Source of the DNA: an uncultured Candidatus Saccharibacteria bacterium | GTDB taxonomy: Bacteria > Patescibacteriota > WWE3 > UBA101185 > UBA10185 | Reading direction: 5' to 3' | Length of the DNA: 25,855 nt | Assembly (NCBI GenBank): GCA_964402525.1 | Contig: CAYOCN010000001.1 | Span: 18,162 to 44,016 of the forward strand | Shown: positions 1-13,329 of the stretch, in pieces | Layout: each line of letters begins with the position of its first letter | Numbering within the stretch: the first letter of the stretch is position 1 | The notes under the pieces: generated by a model | What the model was told of the DNA's origin: nothing | The model's database searches: none | The model's input: the letters and a program-made list of their open reading frames with translations, nothing else | Translations under genes and position numbers: made by a program

Positions 1-981
1 GTAGAACAACTTAAAAAATCCCTTTTCATAGAAGAAAAAACTAAGAAAATTCTGGAGTTAAAAGAACGCCTAAAAGATGAAACATTGTGGACAGACTGGG
101 AAGCGGGTCAAAAGATATCACAAGATTTAGCCGCATTAGAAAAAGACATTGAGGAATATACAATGTTGGAATTGTTGGTGGAAGAAGGAAATATAGAAGA
201 AATTGATAAAGAGATTAAAAGATTAGAGTTAAAAACGTTTTTATCAGGCAAACACGACAAAGATTATGCCATTATTTCGATCCACGCGGGCCAAGGTGGC
301 ACCGAAGCTATGGATTGGACTGAAATGTTATACCGAATGTACACACGCTACGCAGAGCGCAAAGGATGGAAAGTGGAAGAACACTACAAAATACAAGGTG
401 AAGAGGCAGGAATAAAGAGCGTGGTATTTGAAATAGACGGTGCGTATGCATATGGATTTTTAAGAGAAGAATCTGGAGTACATAGATTAGTTAGGCAATC
501 CCCTTTTAATGCAGATAGCCTAAGACAAACTTCTTTTGCATTAGTGGAATTAATGCCCGTTATCGAGGATGATTCAGAAATAGAAATAAAAGAGGAAGAT
601 TTGGAGTGGGATTTTTTTAGAGCAGGTGGGCATGGTGGTCAAAATGTTAATAAAGTTTCAACTGCAGTACGCTTAAAACACAAACCAACAGGAATAATTA
701 TAGAAAGCCAAGAAGAGAGGTATCAAGGTAAAAATAGAGAAAAAGCTTTAAAGTTGCTAAAGTCAAAACTATATAAAAGAGAATTAGAAAGATCCGAAGA
801 AGAAAAACGAAAAATAAAAGGTGAATATAAAACTCCAGGGTGGGGCAATCAAATCCGAAACTACATCCTCCACCCTTATAAACTAGTAAAAGATCTTAGA
901 ACAAACGTGGAAATAACAAATCCAGAATCTGTCTTAGACGGAGACTTAGATTTACTTATAGATGCAGAAATTAGAATCTAA
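1..981 (+). CDS. prfB: Peptide chain release factor 2, 5'-partial (frame is open from base 1; true start lies upstream of the window)
   Basis: SPF anticodon-mimic motif (RQSPFNA), [33 protein letters not shown]. Frame 1 reads [13 protein letters not shown]... with no stop before position 85. Confidence 0.97.
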
Positions 982-1222
982 ATAAGTATTGAACCTGTTC
1001 AAAATTAAAACCACTGTATTTCATTCCAAGCAAAGATACCACAGCGACTACTGCAAATACTAAGATCATGGTTAAATCTCTTTTCATTTGAGTAACTGGA
1101 AGTTCGTGTGTGTGAGAACTTGGTTTGGAAACGGTTAAATTTTTACTAACGGGTTTTGCTGAAGCTTTCTTTTTTGTGGCAGCAACAGCTGGGCGTTTTT
1201 GGGCAGTTTTCTTTTTTTTCAT
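971..1222 (-). CDS. Small hypothetical protein: Lys/Ala-rich basic N-terminus, single C-terminal TM helix
   Basis: 83 aa; SD-like GAGGT 3 nt before ATG; hydrophobic stretch [16 protein letters not shown]; overlaps the prfB 3' end convergently by 11 bp. Confidence 0.75.
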
Positions 1223-1274
1223 ATACCTCTATAAAATTAAATAATTACTAAGATAATTGTAAAGCATATTACTA

Positions 1275-3503
1275 CTAATTCAAAGATTCTACTTCATCAA
1301 TTGGTTCTTCCGAAAATCCAGAAAAAGAACTATCCGAAGAAGTTAATACGTGACGTGGCTTACTGCCTTCGGCAGGACCGACAATACCTTTTTCCTCAAG
1401 TTGGGATAGTATTCTTGCGGCACGCGCATACCCAATGGATAATCGGGTTTGTAACAAAGAGGCAGAGGCTCTACCCGCAGCAGAAACTATTTCTACAGAG
1501 TCATTGAATAGCTCATCTACGTCACTCCCACCACCATTACTACCGCCAAAACTGGAGTTACTACCCATTTTTAATATTTCTTCACGATACTCAGGAGAAA
1601 CACCTTGAGCTTTCAAAAATCCCACAAGATTTTTAATCTCAACAAGAGATATAAAAGCTCCTTGTAAACGCACTGGTTTTGGTCGATCAGGAGGAATAAA
1701 TAACATATCTCCTTTTCCAAGTAGTTTTTCAGCACCTGGTTGGTCAATAATAACGCGCGAATCAACATTGCTCATAACATTAAAAGCAACTCTAGCAGGG
1801 ATGTTAGCCTTGATAAGCCCTGTAATGATATTAGTGGTAGGTCTTTGTAACGCTAGTATTAAATGTATACCGGTAGCACGAGCTAGTTGTGCGAGTCTAA
1901 CAATACTTTTTTCAACTCCTGCAGGATCTTGAATCATAATTTCGGCAAGCTCATCAACAATAATTACGATATAGGGCATACTTTGAAAACCAGATTTTTC
2001 ATTGTAACCATCAATATTCATAACTTTTGCTTGTTCAAACAATTTATAACGTCGATCCATTTCAGTAACCGCCCACTTAAAAACAGAAGGTGCTTTATCC
2101 ATGTCGGTAACTACAGGAACCAAAAGATGCGGAATATCTTGGTAATGAGTAAATTCAACACGTTTTGGGTCAATCATTATTAAACGAACTTCTTGAGGAC
2201 TTGCTCTAAATAAAAGAGAGAAAATTAAGTTGTGTAAAAAGATAGATTTACCAGAACCAGTAGTACCAGCTACAAGTAAGTGAGGCATTTTAGAAATATC
2301 ATACGTGGCCACCTGTCCTGCTACATCTTTACCTAAAACAATACTTAATTTAGATTTAGACGCTTTCATAGGGCCAGAACTAATGAGAGATTTAAAACTA
2401 ACAGTTCCGCGTACATCGTTAGGAACTTCAATTCCCACAAGGGATTTACCAGGAATTGGAGCTTCAATACGAACAGTACCGTTTGGAGAAGCTAAAGCTA
2501 AAGCCAAATCATTTTGTAGATTAGCAATTTTTGCAATACGAACATCAGAATTAGCTTTTAAAGAATACTGGGTAACAGAAGGGCCTCGTTGTATGTCGGC
2601 AACTTCCACGTCAATTCCAAAAGATTTAAGCTTATCCCGTATAATTTTGGCGCGAGTTTTTGTATCACCGCTATCCCCTTCTTCATCAACAGGATCAACT
2701 AAAATATCAAGAGGTGGGTGTTCCCACATACGATCAGCTCCTAAAGGATTGTTATTAGCTAAACTCAACTTTTCCAAAGACTCACTGGGATTTAAAGCTT
2801 TTTTAGATTGAGGTTCAGACATAGTTGGAATAACTTCAATTTTTGGCTCATCAAAGACATCTTCTTCCAATCCATTTAGGGTATCAAAGGAATCGCGGGA
2901 AGAATAACTACTGACAACTTCGATATCAGAATCATCAGAACCTTTTTTATTACCAAAAACACCCAATAGTTTAAACCCTGAAAAGGAACCAGAAACTTTT
3001 TTCACGGCACTTTCCAACGAAACATCCAATGTAAAAATTACACTCATCACAAGTGACAATAAGAGTATTGGAAAACCTGCATAAACACTTACGGTGTCTC
3101 TCAACATGGAAGAAATCTTATATCCTATAAAACCGCCGCCGTTACCTGCAACCGCAGCTTCATAAGCAGATTTACCCGACATAAATATATGAAACAGTGA
3201 TGATAAAGAAATTAAAACAAAAAATAAACCTAAAATATATCTAAATTCTTTAAATTTTATCTTTAAAGATTCAATGAAAAAAATACCTAGTAACCCTAAA
3301 ACAAAAGGAAATAAAAAAGATGGAAAACCAAACAAACCTCTTAATATTTGTTGTATTTTTGCATTAACAGAATACTCTGGCAGAAAAAAGGACAGTAAAC
3401 TAATTAGACTTAATAAAATGAGCAACAGAGAAAATATAGACCTTAGGGTCTCGGGTTTTATATTAAAATTGAATCTGAATTTCTTTTTTCGTCCTCTGGG
3501 CAT
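1275..3503 (-). CDS. ftsK: FtsK/SpoIIIE DNA translocase (N-terminal 4TM, motor, gamma domain)
   Basis: TM-rich N-terminus, RIEAPIPGKSLVGIEVPN, PHLLVAGTTGSGKS Walker A, IIVDELA Walker B, RATGIHLILALQR, GAEKLLGKGDML, gamma-domain SASLLQTRLSIGYARAAR. Confidence 0.98.
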   Translation of the reverse strand: MPRGRKKKFRFNFNIKPETLRSIFSLLLILLSLISLLSFFLPEYSVNAKIQQILRGLFGFPSFLFPFVLGLLGIFFIESLKIKFKEFRYILGLFFVLISLSSLFHIFMSGKSAYEAAVAGNGGGFIGYKISSMLRDTVSVYAGFPILLLSLVMSVIFTLDVSLESAVKKVSGSFSGFKLLGVFGNKKGSDDSDIEVVSSYSSRDSFDTLNGLEEDVFDEPKIEVIPTMSEPQSKKALNPSESLEKLSLANNNPLGADRMWEHPPLDILVDPVDEEGDSGDTKTRAKIIRDKLKSFGIDVEVADIQRGPSVTQYSLKANSDVRIAKIANLQNDLALALASPNGTVRIEAPIPGKSLVGIEVPNDVRGTVSFKSLISSGPMKASKSKLSIVLGKDVAGQVATYDISKMPHLLVAGTTGSGKSIFLHNLIFSLLFRASPQEVRLIMIDPKRVEFTHYQDIPHLLVPVVTDMDKAPSVFKWAVTEMDRRYKLFEQAKVMNIDGYNEKSGFQSMPYIVIIVDELAEIMIQDPAGVEKSIVRLAQLARATGIHLILALQRPTTNIITGLIKANIPARVAFNVMSNVDSRVIIDQPGAEKLLGKGDMLFIPPDRPKPVRLQGAFISLVEIKNLVGFLKAQGVSPEYREEILKMGSNSSFGGSNGGGSDVDELFNDSVEIVSAAGRASASLLQTRLSIGYARAARILSQLEEKGIVGPAEGSKPRHVLTSSDSSFSGFSEEPIDEVESLN

Positions 3504-3510
3504 CCATCAT

Positions 3511-3519
3511 ATTTTAACA
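3511..3519 (-). promoter_or_regulatory. Extended -10 promoter TGTTAAAAT, 7 nt before the ftsK ATG (leaderless candidate)
   Basis: Minus strand reads TGT-TAAAAT-ATGATGG-ATG; no SD. Confidence 0.6.
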
Positions 3520-5250
3520 TTATATTGTTAATGCGTGCACAATTATAAGAGGTGATCTCCCGGTTTCTTTATACAAAAATTTATCGAGTTCATTTTCAAC
3601 TTTCTTTTTTTGAAAATTCCAATCTTTATTTCTGCCGTCTTGCTTGTTTAAAACTTTAGTTATTAACTTTTTAGATCTGTTCATTAATTCTTGAGATTCA
3701 CTAAAATAAACAAATCCACGTGTTATAACTTCTGCTTTATCCGCTAATAGCTTACCACCTTTAACTTGAGGAACAACCACCACTAAAACGCCATCGTTAG
3801 ATAAAATCTCACGATCTTTTACCACAACAGGATTTATTTTTTGAGTGGTACCTGTATTTATATAAACAGGTGCAGTTTCAACAGAATAGCTTTTTTCAGC
3901 TTTCCCGTTATGGAAATCAACACCTTCACCTTCTAAACATTCAAAAACAGATTCTTTTGGAAATCCCAAACTACCTACTAAATTTTTATAAGCACGCATC
4001 TTTGTTACAGTACCACCTAAAGGAATAAAGTATTTGGGTTTAACAAGTTGAATCATTCTAGTAATGTCTTCTTTAGCCGCATGACCTGAAACGTGTAAAT
4101 TGTTTTGGATGGCGCTGTAAATAACTTCACACCCAGCTAATGTTAAAGCATCTGTTAACTTACCAACAGTAATATCAGATCCTGGAGGCGCGGGGTCACC
4201 TGAAAATACAACCATCGCATTATCTTCCAATGAAATGTCCTTATTTTCATCGCGACTTAATCTTTCTAATGAAGAGCCAACTTGTCCGTAACAACCAGCA
4301 ATAATATAAACTAAGGTACTTTGATCATAAGACACAGATTCTTTTTCGGGAACAAAAACATCGTCAGGAAAAGGTAAGTACGCAAGTTTACGAGCAATTT
4401 TTACCATTTGTTCAATGGATCTACCACTAGCAACTACTTTTCTACCACATCTTATAGCAGCAGAAGCTACCTGGTTCATACGAGAAATATTAGATGACAT
4501 TGTAGTTACAAAAATCTGTCTTTTACCAGCGCGTTGAAATAATTCATCAAAAGTACTATCCAAAGTCTTTTCTGATTTTGTGTGACCCTCTGTGGTTACT
4601 AATAAACAGTCAGACAGTAAGCAAGTCACACCTTCTTTTCCAAATCTTTCTATTTTATCCACTTCTATCGGTTTATCTAAAACAGGAGTGTCATCGAATT
4701 TATATTCAGCAATGTGTAAAAACAAACCTTCGGGAGTTTTAATAGCATAACCAGTGGTTTCTGGAATTGAGTGGTTTACACGAATTCCCGACACTTTAAA
4801 ATTACCTAAAGTTATTTCTGGGGTGTTACCATCAATTAAATTAAATTTAACTTTTTGTAATAAACTTTTATCAAAAGAACGATCCTCTAACATTACCTTA
4901 ACAAACTCTTGAACCAATTCTCCAGAATAAAGACTAATTTCTCCAACATCTTGAAGTAAATAAGGCAAAGCACCAATATGATCTTCATGAGCATGAGTGA
5001 TAAATAAACCTCTTATTTTATGTTTGTTTTCAACTAAGTAGGAAAAATCTGGAATTACGATATCGACTCCGGGCATATCAAAAATATCAGGAAAACCAAT
5101 ACCACAATCAACTAAAATAATATCGTTACCGTATTCATAAACGGTAAGATTTTTATTTACGTTTTCAGTACCACCCAAAGTTCTAATAGTTAGTTTGGAA
5201 CCTGAATCATACAAAGTATTTATATTTTCTTTACTAGTCGAATTATTCAT
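3520..5250 (-). CDS. rnj: Ribonuclease J (beta-CASP metallo-beta-lactamase) with atypical motifs IV and C
   Basis: THAHEDHIGALP, VNHSIPE, LLSD, HVSGH, C-terminal SNDGV...EVITRGFVY. Start placed at the ATG at 5250 rather than the TTG at 5259. Confidence 0.95.
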   Translation of the reverse strand: MNNSTSKENINTLYDSGSKLTIRTLGGTENVNKNLTVYEYGNDIILVDCGIGFPDIFDMPGVDIVIPDFSYLVENKHKIRGLFITHAHEDHIGALPYLLQDVGEISLYSGELVQEFVKVMLEDRSFDKSLLQKVKFNLIDGNTPEITLGNFKVSGIRVNHSIPETTGYAIKTPEGLFLHIAEYKFDDTPVLDKPIEVDKIERFGKEGVTCLLSDCLLVTTEGHTKSEKTLDSTFDELFQRAGKRQIFVTTMSSNISRMNQVASAAIRCGRKVVASGRSIEQMVKIARKLAYLPFPDDVFVPEKESVSYDQSTLVYIIAGCYGQVGSSLERLSRDENKDISLEDNAMVVFSGDPAPPGSDITVGKLTDALTLAGCEVIYSAIQNNLHVSGHAAKEDITRMIQLVKPKYFIPLGGTVTKMRAYKNLVGSLGFPKESVFECLEGEGVDFHNGKAEKSYSVETAPVYINTGTTQKINPVVVKDREILSNDGVLVVVVPQVKGGKLLADKAEVITRGFVYFSESQELMNRSKKLITKVLNKQDGRNKDWNFQKKKVENELDKFLYKETGRSPLIIVHALTI

Positions 5251-5261
5251 AAGCAGCAATA

Positions 5262-5786
5262 TTAGATAATTAAACCACCTTCCTTGAGTTTATCCAAGAA
5301 TTTTAGGTTTAAATCCCTTTTATTAACTTGGTAACTTTTCCCAAGAAGGAATTTTGCAGAGGTGTAATCAGCCCAGAAAAACTCATCAAACTTTGTTTCT
5401 TTTATGTCTATTTCTTCCGATTTAACAGCTAAAACATAAAGAAAATACTTTTTACCAGTCATATTTATGGCAACACCCTCATCTGTTTGAACATCTCGTT
5501 CACCATAAAACTTTTTGTTCATTGTAACTTCGCCGTCACCCAAATAAATATAATTTGTATCACAACCATCTGAAAATGTTTTTCCAAGTTCTTCCGTTAA
5601 TTCACGTCTTATAGCATCTGCGGGGGTTTCATTGTTTTCAACTCCACCTTGGGGTAAAAGCCATAATTTATATTCTTTTTTAAAAAGTAATAATAATTTG
5701 TTTTCGTGAACACAAAAACAAACAACTCCGGGTCTAAACCCTTTTGTACGTATTTCATCTAATTCTTTTAAAGTTGGTTCTTTCAT
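5262..5786 (-). CDS. Nudix hydrolase, RppH/NudH-like (putative RNA 5' pyrophosphohydrolase)
   Basis: Complete Nudix box GGVENNETPADAIRRELTEELG. FRPGV, WLLPQGG and EFFW resemble RppH FRPNV, WQFPQGG and EFDGWRW. ATGA overlap with the UDG stop. Confidence 0.8.
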   Translation of the reverse strand: MKEPTLKELDEIRTKGFRPGVVCFCVHENKLLLLFKKEYKLWLLPQGGVENNETPADAIRRELTEELGKTFSDGCDTNYIYLGDGEVTMNKKFYGERDVQTDEGVAINMTGKKYFLYVLAVKSEEIDIKETKFDEFFWADYTSAKFLLGKSYQVNKRDLNLKFLDKLKEGGLII

Positions 5787-6358
5787 ATATTAATACTTTC
5801 AAGTATAGACGGAATTCTCAAAAAATCTTCCTTTAAGGTTTTTAACATATCACCATTTCTTAACGCGGCTGCAGGATGGTATACCGGATAAACGTTATAA
5901 ACACCTTGTGTGGTTTCTACTTTAATCGTATGTCCATGATCTCTTGTAATTTTCCCATCTTTATAAAAATAGTTCATAGAAAATCTACCAAGAGTTACCA
6001 CAAGTTTTGGTTTTATAATATTTAATTGCATTGTTAAATATGGTTCACACAAAGAAAGTTCATCAGGTAAAGGGTCACGATTTTCAGGTGGACGGTGCTT
6101 TATGATATTACCGATCCAAACATCTTCTCGTTTTAAATTAATAACTTCTAATAATTTTTGTAAAAGCATCCCTGCACGACCAACAAAAGGTCTACCAGTT
6201 GCATCCTCAGTAGCACCAGGAGCCTCACCAATGAATACAATTTTGGAATCTATATTACCTTCCCCTGGAACAGAATTTTTAGCGTTTTCACAAAGTCGAC
6301 ATTTTTTACAAAGTTTCACATTATTTTCAATTTGATTTAATAATTCCAGTTTCGTCAT
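5783..6358 (-). CDS. Family-4 uracil-DNA glycosylase (4Fe-4S type)
   Basis: CxxC near N-terminus, GEGN..SKIVFIGEAPG, GRPFVGRAG, KHRPPENRDP, LVVTLGRFS, YHPAAALR. ATGA overlap with the upstream Lon-like gene. Confidence 0.95.
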   Translation of the reverse strand: MTKLELLNQIENNVKLCKKCRLCENAKNSVPGEGNIDSKIVFIGEAPGATEDATGRPFVGRAGMLLQKLLEVINLKREDVWIGNIIKHRPPENRDPLPDELSLCEPYLTMQLNIIKPKLVVTLGRFSMNYFYKDGKITRDHGHTIKVETTQGVYNVYPVYHPAAALRNGDMLKTLKEDFLRIPSILESINI

Positions 6359-7416
6359 TTTGGTAAGTAATATTTAAGATTTTCAGCAGTTATATAAACA
6401 CTCTTAGATTTACCTTCAACAATTTCTTTAGCCACTTTTCTACATAAAGATTCTAAAGTTCTACCCAAACTTCTAATACCGGTATCAAAACCAAAAGGTC
6501 TAACAATTCCTGGCCAAAGATTTGGATCGATTTGTAATTCTTCCGCAGTAAGACCGGCACCTTCAATAATTTTGGGAAATAAATATTTTTGAGCAATTAC
6601 CAGTTTTTCTTCATCGGTGTAAGAAGGCATTTTTATAACTTCCATTCTATCCATTAAAGCGGTTGATAAGGTACCTGTGTTGTTAGCAGAACAAATAAAC
6701 AAACAGTCAGATAAATCAACAGGAAAATCTATGTAGTGGTCTCTAAAGGAACTATTTTGGTTGGGGTCTAATATTTCAAGCAAAACCGCCATAATATCAG
6801 AACGTAATCCTTTTTCACCACTAGCTTTTTCTATTTCATCCAATAGAATTAAGGGGTTTTTCACTTTAGACTTGATTAGCGCTTTAATTATTTGCCCAGG
6901 TTCTGCATCCGGAAAAGCTTTGCTTTCACCTCTAAGCTCTAAGGTAGACCCCAAACCTCCCATGGCAATTCTCCCGAATTCTCTTCCTAAAGCCTCCGCC
7001 ACAGAAATAGCCAGTGTAGTTTTACCAACTCCTTGCAAACCCACTAATAGTAAAACTGGTGAACGGGATATGGCGTCTTTCCCTCGACGTTTTAATAAAA
7101 TTAACGAGGAAAGGTACTCAAGAATTCTATCTTTAACGTAACCCATTCCATAGTGATTTTTATCTAAAAATTGCTTAGCCTTCTCTAAATCTAAAATATC
7201 TTCAGTTTTATTTTGCCAAGGAATTGAAGTAACAACATCTATATAACGTGATAACGTGTCAAATTCAGAGGCATAATGGCCCAACTTGGCCATTCTATTC
7301 AAACGATCGATCATTTGATTCAGTCGCTCAGAAAGATCTTCCGGCAATCCTGTGGTGTCTTTAACCTTTTGAGATAGTGTGTCTAGTTCTTTAAATATAA
7401 ATTCTTCTTGTTGCAT
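6355..7416 (-). CDS. Lon-family AAA+ protein lacking both the Lon N-domain and the Ser-Lys protease domain
   Basis: YIDVVTSIPW, LDKNHYGMGYVKDRILEYL, GLQGVGKTT, NPLILLDEIEK, LLEILDPNQNSSFRDHY, LMDRMEVI, YTDEEKLVIAQKYL, GIRSLGR. Stops at 353 aa. Confidence 0.92.
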   Translation of the reverse strand: MQQEEFIFKELDTLSQKVKDTTGLPEDLSERLNQMIDRLNRMAKLGHYASEFDTLSRYIDVVTSIPWQNKTEDILDLEKAKQFLDKNHYGMGYVKDRILEYLSSLILLKRRGKDAISRSPVLLLVGLQGVGKTTLAISVAEALGREFGRIAMGGLGSTLELRGESKAFPDAEPGQIIKALIKSKVKNPLILLDEIEKASGEKGLRSDIMAVLLEILDPNQNSSFRDHYIDFPVDLSDCLFICSANNTGTLSTALMDRMEVIKMPSYTDEEKLVIAQKYLFPKIIEGAGLTAEELQIDPNLWPGIVRPFGFDTGIRSLGRTLESLCRKVAKEIVEGKSKSVYITAENLKYYLPK

Positions 7417-7422
7417 AAAAGT

Positions 7423-7431
7423 AAGATATCA
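7423..7431 (-). promoter_or_regulatory. Extended -10-like TGATATCTT, 6 nt before the Lon-like ATG (leaderless candidate)
   Basis: Minus strand TGA-TATCTT-ACTTTT-ATG; the TGA is also the stop of the upstream gene. Confidence 0.45.
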
Positions 7432-8412
7432 CAAAACCAAGTAATCCTGCTTACCAGAAAAGTATGAGGTTAATAAATCTTTAACAAATGTAGATGAAAT
7501 ATCACCAACTTTTTTGTTTAAATCTTCTAAAATACTTTTACCGGTAGCAGTCATGGATATTAATAGGGTTGTTCCTTCAACATTAGTTTTATCACTTAAC
7601 AAAGAGTATTTGGAATTAAGAGCCAAACTTCTTTCAATTTTACTTTTATAGGCAGCCGATTGGGTTAAAACATCTTTGTTATTACTTATCAAAATAACTG
7701 AATCAAATTTTTTAACAAAAAAATCCTTGGAGGTAGTTGATATGGAAGACTTTTGAATATCTTCAGGAATAATCAATAAACCCCATGTAGTTGCAGTGGC
7801 AGTTTTTGAAACAAAAAAGGCAAAAGGTTTAAATTTTTCAGCAGCAACAAAATCAATAAGCGATTTATTCTTTTCAAATAGATTTGTAAATAATTCAGAA
7901 AATTTTTGAAAATCAAATCCTTCAACATATAAATCAGCTCCGTAAGGAACGTACTCTGCCAAAGCAGAAAACCCAAAAACATTACATTTCTGCAACTCTT
8001 CAATTAAACACACTGGTTTTTTGGAAGTTACAACTTCCTTTGGTTGCTCCACTTTAGTTTCTACAGAGGATTCTTTTGTGGGTACAATAACCCCAGAACC
8101 TTTTAATACAGGTTTATCTAAAAAGGCATTTAAAACGTTTTTACCATAGACAGAAGCAACCACTATAACAATAACAATTAATAAAATTCCAATAGCTATC
8201 AAAACTTTTTTTATATTTAATTTTTTTAGATCAAGAGACATTTTTGTAACAGCTTTTGGAGGAATCGGAATAATAGGAACAGTTGTAATTTTTTGAATTA
8301 TTTCAGGAGAGGTAACATCCTTAATATCGAGTTTTTGAGAACAGGATGAGCAAAAATAAAAATCATAAGAACCAAGTTTAGAATTACAATTTGGGCAGAA
8401 TCTGTTAGGCAT
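7429..8412 (-). CDS. Hypothetical membrane protein: N-terminal CxxC-CxxC zinc ribbon, Pro-rich linker, one TM, extracytoplasmic domain
   Basis: CPNC...CSSC; IAIGILLIVIVIVVASVY TM; TATAAT box 8 nt before ATG. Confidence 0.85.
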   Translation of the reverse strand: MPNRFCPNCNSKLGSYDFYFCSSCSQKLDIKDVTSPEIIQKITTVPIIPIPPKAVTKMSLDLKKLNIKKVLIAIGILLIVIVIVVASVYGKNVLNAFLDKPVLKGSGVIVPTKESSVETKVEQPKEVVTSKKPVCLIEELQKCNVFGFSALAEYVPYGADLYVEGFDFQKFSELFTNLFEKNKSLIDFVAAEKFKPFAFFVSKTATATTWGLLIIPEDIQKSSISTTSKDFFVKKFDSVILISNNKDVLTQSAAYKSKIERSLALNSKYSLLSDKTNVEGTTLLISMTATGKSILEDLNKKVGDISSTFVKDLLTSYFSGKQDYLVL

Positions 8413-8425
8413 TTAAATTCATTAT

Positions 8426-8461
8426 ACAGAAACCCCTCGCGATATTAAATCGGCAAGGGGT
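8426..8461 (-). terminator. Probable intrinsic terminator after pnp
   Basis: Minus RNA ACCCCUUGC-C-GAU(UUAAU)AUC-GCGAGGGGU followed by UUCUGU; about 12 bp stem with one G-U pair and one bulge; U-tract is weak. Confidence 0.7.
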
Positions 8462-8479
8462 ATTCTTATATTTTTTCTT

Positions 8480-10597
8480 TTATTGATCGGATTGTGGTGC
8501 TTCTAAGGCTTTTTTCGATAAGGCAATCTTGCCTTCTCTTTCTACTCTCAAAACCTTAACTTTAACAACATCGCCCATTTTGAACCACTCGTTGATATTT
8601 TCAACATAACGATCTGCTACTTCACTAATGTGTAATAAACCAGTTTTACCAGGTAAGATTTCAACAATGGCGCCAAAGTCTAATAAATCAATGACTGTAC
8701 CTTCATAAATTTCACCAGGTTTTACCTCGTGTGTAATACCTTCAACAATTTTTAGAGCTTCTTGAGCTTTTTCAATATCGGCACAAGAAATAACCACGGT
8801 ACCATCTTCTTCAATGGAAATTTCAGCGCCAGTTCTTTCTTGAATTTCTTTTATTGTTTTACCGCCACTACCTATTACCATACCAATTTTATCAGGATCA
8901 ATTTTTGTGGTTACAACTTTAGGTGCATACTTTGAGACAGTTTCTCTGGAAGTTGAAATAACTTTTTGCATTTCATCTAAAATAAATAATCTACCATCGC
9001 GTGATTGATTGATTACTTCTTCTAAAACGTGCATTGGCATTCCTTTTACCTTCATATCACATTGAATTGCAGTAACACCTGTTTTTGTACCAGTCATCTT
9101 AAAGTCCAAGAATCCACCACCATCTTCTTCACCAGATAAATCGGTTAATACTTTGTAATTGGTAAATTCATCGTCTGAAACAATTAATCCCATTGCAACA
9201 CCACCAACCATATCTTTAAGTGGAACACCGGCATCCATTAGTGCAAGGGTAGCACCACAAGTGGAAGCCATTGAAGACGAACCATTTGAAGAAACTGTTT
9301 CCGATACCAAAATAATAGTATATGGAAATTCTTTTTGTATTGGCATTACAGGTTTTAAACCTTTTTCAGCAATCATTCCGTGACCTATCTCACGACCTCT
9401 TGGGGAACCCATTTTTCCAACTTCACCAGTTGAATAAGGTGGGAAGTTGTAATAGTGCATAAATCTCTTGGATCTCTCACCATACATATCTTGAACTAAA
9501 AGTTCCATTGAGGGTGAACCTAATGTGGCAACAGTTAAAGCTTGGGTTGTCCCACGTGTGAATAAAGCACTTCCATGAGTTCTTGGAAGTAAATTGACCT
9601 TACCTGATATTGGTCTAACTTCTGTTAAACCTCTACCATCTAAACGTTTGTTTTCATCAAGTACAACGTGTCTAATAGATTCCTTTTCGAGATCCTCTAT
9701 AGCACGCACTATATCAACTTTTGTGTAAACACCATCAAACTTAGCAACAACCTCATCACGTAATAAAATCTTTTGTGCGTCAAGATCATGCTTACTTAAA
9801 GCCTGTTTAGTTAGTGCATCAACTTTATCCTTAGCCGCTTCGGAGACATCTTTTAAAAGCGTCTCGCCTAAAGCTCTTGATACATAAGTATATTTTTTTA
9901 TTCCGGGATTTAATTCATTAGCAAAATCTTCAATTAAAGCTAAAAGTGGATCAACGCTACCACGACCAAAATTTATTGCTTCCAATATTTTTGTTTCTGG
10001 TAATACGTTTGCACCAGCTTCAACAGCTAAAAATCTTTTTTCTTTTCCAACAAAGGAAACAATCATTTCAAGATCACTTTTGTCATGTAAAACTTCTCTT
10101 GAAGGACATAGCACAAGTTTTCCATCAACTAATCCAACTCTGGCAGTGGCCATAGGACCATACCAAGGAATATTTGAGGCGTGTAAAGCAGCAGAAACTG
10201 CAATCATGCTGGTAAATTCAGCGTCAGCTTCTTCATCAACAGATAATACAGTGGCTATTACTTGAACATCATCCATATAATCTTTTGGAAATAGTGGTCT
10301 TATTGCGTGGTCAATTGCTCTTTGAGCAATAATTGCATCATCAGTACCTCTTCCATCTCTTTTTACAAATCTTGAACTTTTGATGGAACCACTGGCGTAC
10401 AATTTTTCTTCATAATTTACGGTAAGTGGGAAAAAATCCTTATCTGGATTTGCATTTCCGGACACTGCTGTTACTAAAACAACTGTTTCACCATAGGTGG
10501 CTTTTACGGCCATAGTTGCTCTTAAAGCAATTTCTCCGGTTTCAAGCACCAAATTCTTTCCTGCAAAGGAAATTTCTTTTTTTACATATTTATTCAT
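8480..10597 (-). CDS. pnp: Polyribonucleotide nucleotidyltransferase (PNPase)
   Basis: DFFPLTVNYEEK, RLDGR, PRTHGSALFTRG, REIGHG, SNGSSSMAS, DFK, KH (IGSGGKTIKEI) and S1 (FGAIVEILPGKTGLLHISE) domains. Confidence 0.99.
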   Translation of the reverse strand: MNKYVKKEISFAGKNLVLETGEIALRATMAVKATYGETVVLVTAVSGNANPDKDFFPLTVNYEEKLYASGSIKSSRFVKRDGRGTDDAIIAQRAIDHAIRPLFPKDYMDDVQVIATVLSVDEEADAEFTSMIAVSAALHASNIPWYGPMATARVGLVDGKLVLCPSREVLHDKSDLEMIVSFVGKEKRFLAVEAGANVLPETKILEAINFGRGSVDPLLALIEDFANELNPGIKKYTYVSRALGETLLKDVSEAAKDKVDALTKQALSKHDLDAQKILLRDEVVAKFDGVYTKVDIVRAIEDLEKESIRHVVLDENKRLDGRGLTEVRPISGKVNLLPRTHGSALFTRGTTQALTVATLGSPSMELLVQDMYGERSKRFMHYYNFPPYSTGEVGKMGSPRGREIGHGMIAEKGLKPVMPIQKEFPYTIILVSETVSSNGSSSMASTCGATLALMDAGVPLKDMVGGVAMGLIVSDDEFTNYKVLTDLSGEEDGGGFLDFKMTGTKTGVTAIQCDMKVKGMPMHVLEEVINQSRDGRLFILDEMQKVISTSRETVSKYAPKVVTTKIDPDKIGMVIGSGGKTIKEIQERTGAEISIEEDGTVVISCADIEKAQEALKIVEGITHEVKPGEIYEGTVIDLLDFGAIVEILPGKTGLLHISEVADRYVENINEWFKMGDVVKVKVLRVEREGKIALSKKALEAPQSDQ

Positions 10598-10607
10598 TTT
10601 TTAATTA

Positions 10608-10715
10608 TAGGAAAAATTTTATAAGAAGACTAAGAGTTGAAATACTATGCACTTCTACGTCAAGAATGCACACTAGCCCAATCCTTAATACTTCTAAGGT
10701 ATAAAATCTTCCCTA
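10608..10715 (-). promoter_or_regulatory. Long multibranch stem-loop in the rpsO-pnp intergenic region (putative pnp leader)
   Basis: 16-bp outer helix (10700-10715 with 10608-10623, two G-U pairs on the minus RNA) enclosing hairpins 10683-10699 and 10646-10672. Confidence 0.7.
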
Positions 10716-10746
10716 ATCCTTAACTTTTCAATTAATTACTTACTAC

Positions 10747-11016
10747 TTACTTATTAAACTCAACTTTTTCAAGTAAAGCTTGGTATCTTTCGGCATCTTT
10801 ATTCTTCAAGTAAGCTAAAAGGCGTCTTCTTTTATTGACCATTTGAAGTAGTCCTCTTCTAGAGTGATTATCCTTTTTGTGAGCTTTTAGGTGATCTGAT
10901 AATTTGGCAATTCTTTCACTTAATAAAGCCACTTGTACTTCTGGAGAACCAGTATCCGAAGCGTGTAACCCACTAGTTTTAACTATTTTAGATTTTACTG
11001 CTTTTTCTAATGCCAT
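10747..11016 (-). CDS. rpsO: 30S ribosomal protein S15
   Basis: [16 protein letters not shown]...[29 protein letters not shown]; start placed at the ATG at 11016 (89 aa). Confidence 0.99.
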
Positions 11017-11026
11017 AAACAACCGA

Positions 11027-11046
11027 AATCTTAACAAACTAAGATT
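11027..11046 (-). promoter_or_regulatory. 8-bp hairpin 10 nt upstream of the rpsO ATG (possible S15 autoregulatory leader or weak terminator)
   Basis: Minus RNA AAUCUUAG(UUUG)UUAAGAUU, flanked on both sides by GGUUG. Confidence 0.35.
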
Positions 11047-11059
11047 AAAAAATCAACCT

Positions 11060-11761
11060 TTATTCTACGTTACGGCACAAAACACCGGTCAATAGGGCTT
11101 TTGCAGCCTTTTTGTTAATTTTTAAATCCCAAAAGTTAGATTTTTGCAACACTAGCAATGAAAGACTGTCTGCGTATTCATCGATAATGTTAACAAGACC
11201 AAATTTAGTATTTTTTTGTACGTTATCTATATTTATAATTTGAGATCCAGCAAACTCTTGAGCAAGATCAGTATATACCTGTCCAAAATCCCCTAATTCT
11301 TGAGCACCGACTGCAAGTATAAGATCATAATCAAAACCTTTTATAGAGGCTCCTACACGGCTTAAATCAAAGTTTTTGTCTATAGGACGAACCTTTAGAT
11401 ATAAAACATCCTTTTCAGTTGAATAATGAACTTTGGCGGCTGGGGTATTGGAATAATCAATAGAAACCATGAGTTCTCGTTCTGCAATATCGGCTGTCAC
11501 ATCTTCAGGAGCAATTAAATCAGCACAACCATCGGGAAGTTGGCCGGTATATACAAAACTCACATCTTTACCTTTTTCCTTCAACATGTGGTATAAACCC
11601 ACACCTGCAGAAAACGCATCTTTTCCCGCTATTTTAGAAGGAAATATAGCTATTCTTTTAGCACCTTCTACTAATTCAAAAAATCTTACATCACTATTTG
11701 ATTTAAAGCTTGTTGTGACGTCTGTATATTCAGTTGTGTTTTGCATTGTGTGTTCGTTCAT
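11060..11761 (-). CDS. Degenerate DHH/NrnA-like protein (N-terminal domain only, metal ligands lost)
   Basis: AKRIAIF...KDAFSAGVGLYHML, DLILAVGA, IINIDNV, SLSLLV, AAKALLTGV follow the DHH motif order. Occupies the usual nrnA slot after infB. Alternative start at 11746. Confidence 0.75.
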   Translation of the reverse strand: MNEHTMQNTTEYTDVTTSFKSNSDVRFFELVEGAKRIAIFPSKIAGKDAFSAGVGLYHMLKEKGKDVSFVYTGQLPDGCADLIAPEDVTADIAERELMVSIDYSNTPAAKVHYSTEKDVLYLKVRPIDKNFDLSRVGASIKGFDYDLILAVGAQELGDFGQVYTDLAQEFAGSQIINIDNVQKNTKFGLVNIIDEYADSLSLLVLQKSNFWDLKINKKAAKALLTGVLCRNVE

Positions 11762-11792
11762 AAAATTAGGAATAATTTAGGAGGATTAAGGG

Positions 11793-11821
11793 ATTGTATA
11801 ACAATTCGATAATGCTGTCAA
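11793..11821 (-). promoter_or_regulatory. Near-consensus sigma70 promoter TTGACA-N17-TACAAT for DHH-rpsO-pnp
   Basis: -35 at 11816-11821, -10 at 11793-11798, 17-nt spacer. Confidence 0.8.
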
Positions 11822-11838
11822 ATGGGGAAAAGTGAGTA

Positions 11839-13329
11839 TTATTTTACTTCAATCCACATATCAGGTTGAATATCTAAAAATATAGGTTTTAAAAGCACGC
11901 CACACTCATTATCCTTACCCACAACAGCAACTTCATCTTTACCTTGGCGTAATCTTTTAATAGAACCACGATAAATAGGTTCATCTTTTTCTGTAATATC
12001 AGCAGGATCTTTAGCATAAATAGCCACACGAGCATTTGGTTTTAAAGCTCCAGCTATAACTTTTGAACCAACAATCAAATCTCCGGAAGCAAGTTTAAAT
12101 ATTTGAATAACTTTAGCTCTACCTTTTATCTTTTTCTCTTCACTAATAGCTTTTCCTTCTAAGAGGTTCTTGGCATCATCGATAAGTTCGTAAATTGCTT
12201 TATAAGATTTAATTGGAATGTTGTGGGTATCGGAAAATTCAGCTATCGATGGAGAAACTTTTACATTAAAACCTAAAACCACACCTTTGGTACTTTGAGC
12301 TAGCATAGCATCGGATTCAGTAATATCTCCAGTGGAACAGTGTAAAAATTTAAGTGCAAAACTAGCACCCACTGAAGAACTTACTAAATCGGCCAAACAA
12401 CTCTTAACAGCTTCAAGTGTTCCTTGTGTATCAGCCTTTAATACCACAGCAATAGTTTTCTTAGCATTTTTGCCAATTATTTCTACACGATTTTCATCAA
12501 CAGCTAATTCAGCTAATTCACTACCAATAGTTAAAATTAAGTCACCAACGTTTGGAACTTTACTAAATCCAAGAATTTCCACAGGTTTTGAAGGTCCAGC
12601 TTCTGTTACCATAGCACCCTTATCGTCCATTATTGATTTAACCTTACATTCCCCGCCACTAGCAGAAACCTTGTCACCAATGTGTAACGTGCCGTTCTTG
12701 ATAATACAAGAAACAATTACACCTTTTTGTCTATCTAAACGAGATTCAACAATTGTAGCTTCCAATTCACCTTTGGGATCAGCACGTAATTCAGCAAGTT
12801 CAGCAACGAGTAAGATGGCATCTAATAAACCATCCATATTTTTGTTTTCTTTAGCTGATACTTCAACACTAATTACATCCCCACCCCAGTCTTCAACCAA
12901 AATATTATGTTGAGCGAGTTCTTGTTTTACTTTTTGGGAATTAGCACCAACTTTATCGATTTTATTGATGGCTACAATAATTGGAACGCCGGCTGCTTTT
13001 GCATGAGAAATGGCTTCAACTGTTTGAGGCTTAACACCTTCATCAGCTGCCACTACTAAAACAACGATATCAGCAGCTTTTCCACCACGTGATCTCATTT
13101 GAGTAAACGCAGCATGACCTGGTGTATCAATAAATGTTATTTTCTTTGAATTATGTTCTATTTGGTATGCACCTATGTGTTGGGTTATTCCACCATATTC
13201 TTTATCAACAACGTGGGCATGTCTTAGAGTATCTAAAATAGAGGTTTTACCATGGTCAACATGTCCCATAATTGTGACCACTGGAGGACGAAAATATTCA
13301 ATTTTAGTATCTTGTCCTGTTTTTTCCAT
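11839..13329 (-). CDS. infB: Translation initiation factor IF-2, minimal (no N-terminal extension)
   Basis: RPPVVTIMGHVDHGKTS, FIDTPGHAAF, NKID, KADTQGTLEA, ECG; 496 aa. Confidence 0.98.
   Translation of the reverse strand: MEKTGQDTKIEYFRPPVVTIMGHVDHGKTSILDTLRHAHVVDKEYGGITQHIGAYQIEHNSKKITFIDTPGHAAFTQMRSRGGKAADIVVLVVAADEGVKPQTVEAISHAKAAGVPIIVAINKIDKVGANSQKVKQELAQHNILVEDWGGDVISVEVSAKENKNMDGLLDAILLVAELAELRADPKGELEATIVESRLDRQKGVIVSCIIKNGTLHIGDKVSASGGECKVKSIMDDKGAMVTEAGPSKPVEILGFSKVPNVGDLILTIGSELAELAVDENRVEIIGKNAKKTIAVVLKADTQGTLEAVKSCLADLVSSSVGASFALKFLHCSTGDITESDAMLAQSTKGVVLGFNVKVSPSIAEFSDTHNIPIKSYKAIYELIDDAKNLLEGKAISEEKKIKGRAKVIQIFKLASGDLIVGSKVIAGALKPNARVAIYAKDPADITEKDEPIYRGSIKRLRQGKDEVAVVGKDNECGVLLKPIFLDIQPDMWIEVK

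Follow-up and report, generated by a model that had tools for sequence, protein, structure and literature searches.

The window analysed here, a stretch of 25,855 nt to which all coordinates refer, stems from a 727-kb metagenome-assembled genome of the Patescibacteria which is 91% complete and has genomes of the candidate division WWE3 as its nearest relatives. On the minus strand, which carries all the genes concerned, four tightly packed genes code for a Lon-type AAA+ ATPase (lonAAA), a uracil-DNA glycosylase (UDG; udg), a Nudix hydrolase and RNase J (rnj). ORF calls together with domain and family profiles confirm that these four open reading frames (ORFs) are present, as described in an earlier reading made from the letters of the DNA (the sequence-only reading), which took them for a discrete operon serving nucleic-acid quality control. 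We suggest that they are part of a long and compact array of housekeeping genes, passed on by inheritance, and that these genes most likely serve separate pathways; we give this explanation a probability of about 70%. The anatomy of the locus, its synteny, the phyletic patterns and the motif states on which this explanation rests were observed directly. The features of the locus are compiled in Table 1.

Table 1. Features of the pnp–ftsK region and its upstream part in the window
Feature	Position	Strand	Remarks
ftsK	1275–3503	−	starts 16 nt after the rnj stop
RNase J (rnj)	3520–5250	−	TIGR00649; sole genomic copy
Nudix hydrolase, 174 aa	5262–5786	−	canonical Nudix box; accessory gene
family-4 UDG (udg)	5783–6358	−	TIGR00758; GEAPG and HPAAALR motifs
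lonAAA, 353 aa, stand-alone LonA-type module	6355–7416	−	NTD-3H helical region, AAA+ large domain and Lon lid
327-aa ORF (orf327)	7429–8412	−	N-terminal CxxC...CxxC zinc-ribbon-like motif, one hydrophobic helix
pnp	8480–10597	−	upstream member of the conserved array
rpsO	10747–11037	−	upstream member of the conserved array
DHH-like ORF, 233 aa	11060–11761	−	DHH match 22 bits, under the Pfam cut-off
GC-rich hairpin	8433–8460	−	within the 67-nt pnp/orf327 spacer; UUUCU follows
best sigma-70-like promoter candidate	8421–8448	−	TTAATA-16-TATAAT, 8 nt ahead of the ATG at 8412
"−10" of the sequence-only reading, TGaTATCTT	7423–7431	−	6 nt ahead of the lonAAA ATG
TATAAT hexamer	3520–3525	−	ahead of ftsK, overlaps the rnj stop codon

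The two stop/start overlaps of the ATGA type reported before are both real (6358–6355 and 5786–5783), and the gap of 11 nt between the Nudix gene and rnj holds when rnj is started at the ATG at 5250; an alternative in-frame TTG start at 5259 would shrink this gap to 2 nt. From pnp to ftsK the successive gaps in the window are 67, 12, −4, −4, 11 and 16 nt, and the medians in the relatives are 37, 3, 3, −4, 10 and 43 nt.

A discrete unit of four genes is not what the locus displays. The stop codon of orf327 lies only 12 nt before lonAAA and ftsK follows rnj by 16 nt, while the best promoter candidate and a strong hairpin are both found upstream of orf327. With a folding energy of −20.9 kcal/mol (z −4.62; none of 200 shuffled sequences folds as well) the hairpin is a probable, perhaps partial, terminator of rpsO–pnp, although a simple terminator scan, owing to the weak T run, does not list it. 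The promoter candidate has 10 of 12 matches, is the top minus-strand site between pnp and ftsK and ranks second on the minus strand of the scanned region 900–12000. The terminator scan found no terminator-like site flanking the four genes.

Two further promoter elements had been proposed in support of a separate unit. The −10 box ahead of lonAAA does exist (four of six positions plus the TG), but it has no −35 element, overlaps the TGA stop codon of orf327 and is not listed by the promoter scan. In 4 of 18 relatives a hexamer that resembles a −10 box as well or better stands 6–7 nt ahead of the lonAAA start codon, compared with a background of 3.6% at random positions, and a weak internal start of the leaderless type is possible at this place. 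Likewise, ftsK is preceded by a TATAAT, but the promoter scan did not list this site, which spans the rnj stop. Promoter or terminator boundaries belonging to the four genes are not conserved among the relatives, which are packed equally tightly from pnp to ftsK, and the four genes do not co-occur, as the Nudix gene, udg and lonAAA are each missing somewhere. We infer a transcription unit that most likely starts after the pnp hairpin (at about 8421–8448) and runs through to ftsK, possibly with weak internal starts before lonAAA and ftsK.

The encoded proteins

The description of lonAAA as a Lon ATPase without protease is borne out. Profile searches detect the AAA domain (PF00004) and the Lon lid (PF22667) only, and neither Lon_C nor the N-terminal LAN domain. 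The protein scores 332 bits with the Lon model TIGR00763, whose cut-off is 608, and the match spans only positions 254–571 of the 795 model positions. The ORF stops after the lid, where udg overlaps the stop codon, and the protease domain with its Ser–Lys dyad (PF05362) is lacking; at the other end the LAN (PUA-like) substrate-recognition domain is missing and the protein starts in the helical region. The remaining module can be aligned over its full length with the AAA+ portion of the Lon proteins from Bacillus subtilis (3m6a), Escherichia coli and human, and shares about 36–39% identity with LonA protease (endopeptidase La) over NTD-3H, AAA+ large domain and lid. The predicted structure (pLDDT 88.9) superimposes on the isolated AAA+ construct of E. 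coli Lon (6n2i) with TM scores of 0.88/0.91 and a root mean square deviation of 2.3 Å.

In 67 members of the family Walker A and B, sensor 1, the arginine finger and sensor 2 are conserved, and these ATPase motifs as well as the aromatic residue of pore loop 1 are common to lonAAA and LonA. The pore loop itself is different, reading HRRTY[VI]GAMPG in Lon and xSK[AV][FY]P[ED]xEPG in the lonAAA family; both the tandem arginine and the hydrophobic partner of the tyrosine are replaced. In Lon the substrate is gripped by this tyrosine together with the hydrophobic residue next to it, and a glutamate of the PS1 hairpin serves as the partner of both arginines (PMC7239648). Judging from its motifs, lonAAA is probably an ATP-driven protein remodeller devoid of proteolytic function: it would hydrolyse ATP, assemble as a ring and unfold or remodel proteins with its pore-loop aromatic, having neither a proteolytic chamber nor an N-domain for substrate recognition.

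Short Lon proteins of this kind are not confined to the window. Among 301 Patescibacteria genomes surveyed about 68 contain a short form of 350–450 aa with 45–79% identity, and about 30 of these genomes hold in addition a Lon of 780–830 aa (36–43% identity), while the 17 genomes of the class to which the window belongs have the short form only. In the phylogenetic tree the short forms constitute a single clade (SH-aLRT 100) on a stem of 1.03, apart from the full-length Lons of both the candidate phyla radiation (CPR) and other organisms. The lonAAA proteins appear to be an old paralog family which is spread throughout the Patescibacteria and forms one clade. More than 5,000 protein clusters of lonAAA length match the query, named only "AAA family ATPase" or "Lon protease", and in the searchable literature we found no description of a protease-less Lon, be it from CPR or elsewhere.

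A protease domain supplied in trans was considered and rejected for the genomes checked. The source genome gives two weak Lon_C matches, which belong to ComM and RadA and score 23.2 and 20.3 bits (cut-off 21.1 bits); two WWE3 genomes that are closed or curated contain none above the cut-off. ClpP and FtsH are present, and the WWE3 genomes checked yielded no Lon-type protein other than lonAAA.

In four genomes of the group f22 (G294, G174, G017 and G237; loci L081, L084, L095 and L096) lonAAA has a larger N-terminal part, with about 385–450 aa in total, and follows glyA, a gene for a ThyX of 531 aa, the dCTP deaminase gene dcd and a class-V aminotransferase gene, i.e., it stands in a thymidylate/dUTP context. 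The expectation that tig–clpP–clpX would be the neighbours in these genomes proved to be wrong. In the family f8 one lonAAA gene (G059, C1:555265-556273) has three in-frame TGA codons and is split into two frames, and one rnj gene (G032, C1:186575-188236) contains a single TGA codon in frame; the genes may be decaying, or TGA may be recoded locally.

RNase J scores 445.5 bits with TIGR00649 (cut-off 400), contains the metallo-β-lactamase (MBL), β-CASP and C-terminal domains and is encoded once in the source genome. The sequence-only reading had called it degenerate, and the alignment to RNase J1 of B. subtilis agrees with this: the aspartate of motif 4 is replaced by glutamate (codon 4705–4707) and the histidine of motif C by glycine (4015–4017). 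The motif HxHxDH (HAHEDH), the histidine of motif 3 (NHS) and the histidine of motif B (HVSGH) are intact, and the set of metal ligands is incomplete. The two replacements have different distributions. The glutamate in motif 4 is found in this genome alone, and all 54 RNase J homologues adjoining lonAAA have glycine or serine in motif C. Across 70 RNase J sequences this position is histidine in 43 cases, glycine or serine in 20 and glutamate, glutamine or tyrosine in 7. The 20 glycine or serine sequences form one clade (support 100), and the other replacements arose several times elsewhere; the tree suggests one event at the base of the clade for the change from histidine to glycine or serine. 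The independent changes to glutamate, glutamine or tyrosine are seen at loci L143, L156, L163, L165, L175, L185 and L186, in lineages without the short Lon ATPase.

The histidine of motif C is a zinc ligand; it is present in RNA-acting β-CASP enzymes and replaced by valine in DNA-acting ones, and is regarded as diagnostic (PMC3095777). Nevertheless, the histidine-less variant is probably active, because CPR keep rnj in their core set of RNases along with rnc and pnp (PMC12641178). Of the 121 Patescibacteria genomes sampled, 118 have a single copy of RNase J, with no RNase J match in the other three. RNase J of the window shares the MBL/β-CASP/C-terminal architecture with the Bacillota enzymes J1 and J2 (3zq4, 6k6s, 6k6w), and its gene lies upstream of ftsK in the syntenic position that one of two rnj paralogues holds in Bacillus; unlike in Bacillota, a whole CPR clade has glycine or serine at motif C, to which the window genome alone adds the glutamate of motif 4. 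The enzyme would be the single 5′ exo- and endoribonuclease of the cell, working with one metal ligand fewer as a trait of the whole clade. We infer the catalytic competence of RNase J, like that of UDG, from these data.

UDG reaches 190.4 bits with TIGR00758 (cut-off 125.3) and contains motif A (GE[AG]PG) and motif B (HP[AS]). The solved family-4 enzymes (4zbx, 1l9g, 1ui0) share GE[AG]PG and HP[AS]A with it and are about 40–50% similar over the full length, but the third cysteine of their [4Fe-4S] cluster is a histidine in the window protein (His88; KHRPP instead of KCRPP). The enzyme was correctly described as histidine-ligated in so far as this residue occupies the ligand position, binding of the cluster being a prediction. 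The predicted ligand set is C17, C20, H88 and C104, i.e., three cysteines and one histidine in place of four cysteines. All 36 WWE3 orthologues have this histidine, which is met here and there in other CPR, including lineages without lonAAA; further lineages keep the cysteine or have lost all four ligands. The additional cysteine of the CxxCxxC motif was considered as a substitute for the lost one and rejected: its position varies between C, Y, H, F and R in the orthologues, the histidine being fixed. The protein would remove uracil from DNA, with a family-4 cluster site in a Cys3His form. In eight loci with UDG beside rnj (L082, L083, L086, L091, L126, L127, L129 and L130) most or all of the Fe–S cysteines are gone and GE[AG]PG and HPAA are kept; by their sequences these family-4-like enzymes look like cluster-free derivatives.

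The Nudix protein has the canonical Nudix box GX5EX7REUXEEXGU (residues 47–69), which marks the Nudix superfamily and not RppH in particular. Its assignment as RppH-like could not be upheld. Although RppH models are its best NCBIfam matches, these matches are weak: the best reaches 47.9 bits where 139 are required, and RppH entries of the PDB reach 24 bits, a score not above that of other Nudix enzymes. Compared with Nudix enzymes of the RppH/Ap4A-hydrolase type, the window protein thus has the box and the top profile match in common, but scores 3- to 8-fold under the equivalog cut-offs and is encoded by a gene which is dispensable among close relatives. An Atlas search returned generic Nudix clusters only.

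Conservation and probable inheritance of the array

The neighbourhood of the four genes is conserved in part. The order lonAAA–(nudix)–udg–rnj is found in 36 of 39 WWE3-type loci, and in at least eight further families of Patescibacteria lonAAA is situated immediately upstream of rnj, with or without udg. A module of four genes, as proposed, is not conserved, however. The Nudix gene is present in only 15 of the 39 loci and there always lies between lonAAA and udg, in the window between udg and rnj, and a homologue was found neither in the closed WWE3 genome G301 nor in G306. From this distribution it appears to be a dispensable and sporadic accessory gene.

Looking beyond WWE3, nine loci of the Levyibacteria type read pnp–lonAAA–rnj–ftsK and contain neither udg nor nudix. 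In 20 genomes from other families lonAAA is retained 13 times within the block from pnp to rnj–ftsK, four times together with udg. Genomes without lonAAA have the order pnp–rnj–ftsK or pnp–udg–rnj–ftsK. In Bacillus thuringiensis, too, pnp, one rnj paralogue and ftsK are found within 16 kb in the same order and on the same strand. As pnp–(udg)–rnj–ftsK exists without lonAAA and Bacillus shares the order of pnp, rnj and ftsK, we suggest that the backbone from pnp to rnj–ftsK is inherited, that udg is an old tenant of it, that lonAAA is a later insertion in one large clade and that the Nudix gene is sporadic.

The similarity to the Bacillota region extends further upstream. Between 11060 and 19353 on the minus strand the window carries rny–ymdB–(93-aa ORF)–dnaJ-like, followed by nusA–infB–DHH-like–rpsO–pnp, which mirrors the rpsO–pnp...rnj–ftsK region of Bacillota with nusA–infB upstream and rny–ymdB nearby. 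We take the order rny–ymdB / nusA–infB to be that of the nusA–ymdB region on the B. subtilis chromosome. In contrast to Bacillus, in which about 8.8 kb of other genes separate pnp from rnj, this space is taken in CPR by udg and/or lonAAA. The DHH-like ORF of 233 aa occupies the position where rbfA/truB would be expected.

Between pnp and lonAAA the window contains orf327, a gene for a membrane protein which matches no Pfam or NCBIfam family. This ORF is specific for WWE3: the Atlas search matched only its own WWE3 cluster and indicated a weak resemblance to DUF3352-type proteins only, and weak homologues with 19–28% identity fill the same slot in most WWE3 loci.

Inherited array or functional module

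Taken together, we suggest that the array nusA–infB–dhh–rpsO–pnp–orf327–lonAAA–udg–nudix–rnj–ftsK was inherited and became compacted in WWE3 from an older arrangement of pnp, rnj and ftsK which is also seen in Bacillota. The proteins encoded by the four genes would then carry out the activities described above side by side, the Nudix protein as an accessory hydrolase which the cell can dispense with.

Several observations weigh against this explanation. In all sampled genomes with lonAAA adjoining rnj, RNase J lacks the histidine of motif C, which is retained in the four f22 genomes, where lonAAA is unlinked; this co-distribution is compatible with a functional link, though each trait accounts for roughly a single event on the trees. 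In addition, that lonAAA is found directly upstream of rnj or udg–rnj in many divergent families could reflect selection rather than inertia. Finally, a preprint reports that the chaperone-like (holdase) activity of Lon maps to the N-domain (bioRxiv 10.64898/2026.05.06.723147); since lonAAA lacks this domain, precedent gives little guidance, and the function of a stand-alone lonAAA is left unexplained by it.

In a second explanation, the protease-less Lon ATPase is an accessory of RNA decay by PNPase and RNase J, for example, by remodelling RNase J oligomers or ribonucleoprotein substrates, and has co-evolved with the RNase J lacking the motif-C histidine. Such a role would fit the place of lonAAA, which lies between the genes for these two enzymes in loci of the WWE3 class and of the Levyibacteria type and in the further families, and also the state of motif C, which is glycine or serine in all rnj-adjacent cases and histidine in f22. 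PNPase and RNase J are moreover known to associate physically in Synechocystis (PMC12464536). Nevertheless, we consider it unlikely. The co-distribution counts as a single event on each tree, and the two traits are also met separately: G106, a genome of 100% completeness, has a glycine-type RNase J and only a full-length Lon, and G116, a single contig of 98% completeness, has lonAAA and no RNase J above noise, neither with a protein query nor with TIGR00649. Beside a glycine-type rnj the lonAAA gene of G059 is apparently interrupted by TGA codons, the f22 genes stand in the glyA–thyX–dcd–aminotransferase context, and the acidic pore loop ([FY]P[ED]xEPG) does not suggest threading of RNA. A complex prediction of lonAAA and RNase J, for which both alignments had only 30 rows, gave no support and counts neither way.

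A related and bolder proposal is that lonAAA represents a new class of remodelling ATPase, characterized by an acidic, proline-containing pore loop, which has been wired into the RNA-decay locus of a major clade of Patescibacteria and has co-evolved with an RNase J deprived of a zinc ligand. We regard it as quite unlikely. If it were true, this Lon-derived motor could control the assembly or activity of RNase J, or clear RNA or DNA of proteins in advance of PNPase, RNase J or UDG.

The sequence-only reading, by comparison, saw in lonAAA–udg–nudix–rnj a dedicated module of nucleic-acid quality control, in which the Nudix protein, acting as RppH, supplies RNase J with 5′-monophosphate RNA, and a Lon-derived unfoldase remodels or assists RNase J, RppH or UDG. 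If it existed, such a module would represent a novel system of RNA/DNA surveillance. The phyletic data argue against it, no evidence supports a coupling, and we judge it very unlikely. It could draw on the tight coupling by the ATGA overlaps, on the conserved order of lonAAA, udg and rnj in WWE3, on the RppH models heading the profile matches and on the possible −10 box ahead of lonAAA. However, the Nudix gene is present in a minority of the loci, there occupies another slot and has no homologue in the closed genome G301, and its RppH scores are far under the cut-offs. The adjacency of udg and rnj is older than lonAAA and exists without it, the Levyibacteria-type loci do without udg and nudix, and no boundaries are found at the ends of the four genes. 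The argument that three of four members with deviant catalytic or metal sites would be unusual for chance neighbours fails as well: the deviations differ in the depth at which they arose and in their distribution, and thus they are not a co-evolving set. A scan with PADLOC yielded weak generic AAA and Nudix matches only and no signature of a defence system.

That lonAAA is merely a truncated remnant of Lon (a pseudogene, an assembly artefact or a split gene) with irrelevant neighbours, as its partial match to the Lon model might suggest, is refuted for practical purposes by its length, which stays at about 350 aa in over 60 genomes with closed genomes among them, its invariant ATPase motifs, its single clade on a long stem alongside full-length Lon in about 30 genomes, the start of udg by an ATGA overlap right after the lid with no protease-domain fragment downstream, and the contigs from separate runs of the same study which span all junctions.

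With the inherited array as the preferred explanation, the locus is of interest mainly for the Lon family consisting of the AAA+ module only and for the clade of histidine-less RNase J. A natural LonA paralog without protease and N-domain, found in roughly a fifth of the sampled Patescibacteria, offers a test of what the Lon motor does without a degradation chamber. An RNase J which is the sole one of a large CPR clade and has lost the histidine of motif C bears on how essential this ligand is. The family-4 UDGs of CPR, graded from Cys4 over Cys3His to cluster-free forms, provide a natural experiment on the role of the Fe–S cluster in glycosylases. In addition, the locus calls for caution, as tight packing and conserved gene order in streamlined genomes can stem from ancient arrays and need not mean functional coupling.

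Sequencing runs and strain variation

The stretch was located in four DNA sequencing runs, all from one freshwater study, and the search revealed no RNA sequencing run among the listed holders of the stretch. All gene junctions as well as the glutamate codon at 4705–4707 were recovered in DNA contigs of this study. Contigs of other organisms match only the conserved HxHxDH stretch near 4957–5003.

In the run X1 one contig of low depth fuses position 4855 to 5678 via 20 unrelated letters, and may represent either a related strain with another udg/nudix/rnj junction or a chimera. Around the udg/lonAAA junction (6172–6694) contigs of X1 and X3 show clustered differences with third-position spacing, which indicates that strain variants of the locus co-occur in the source study.

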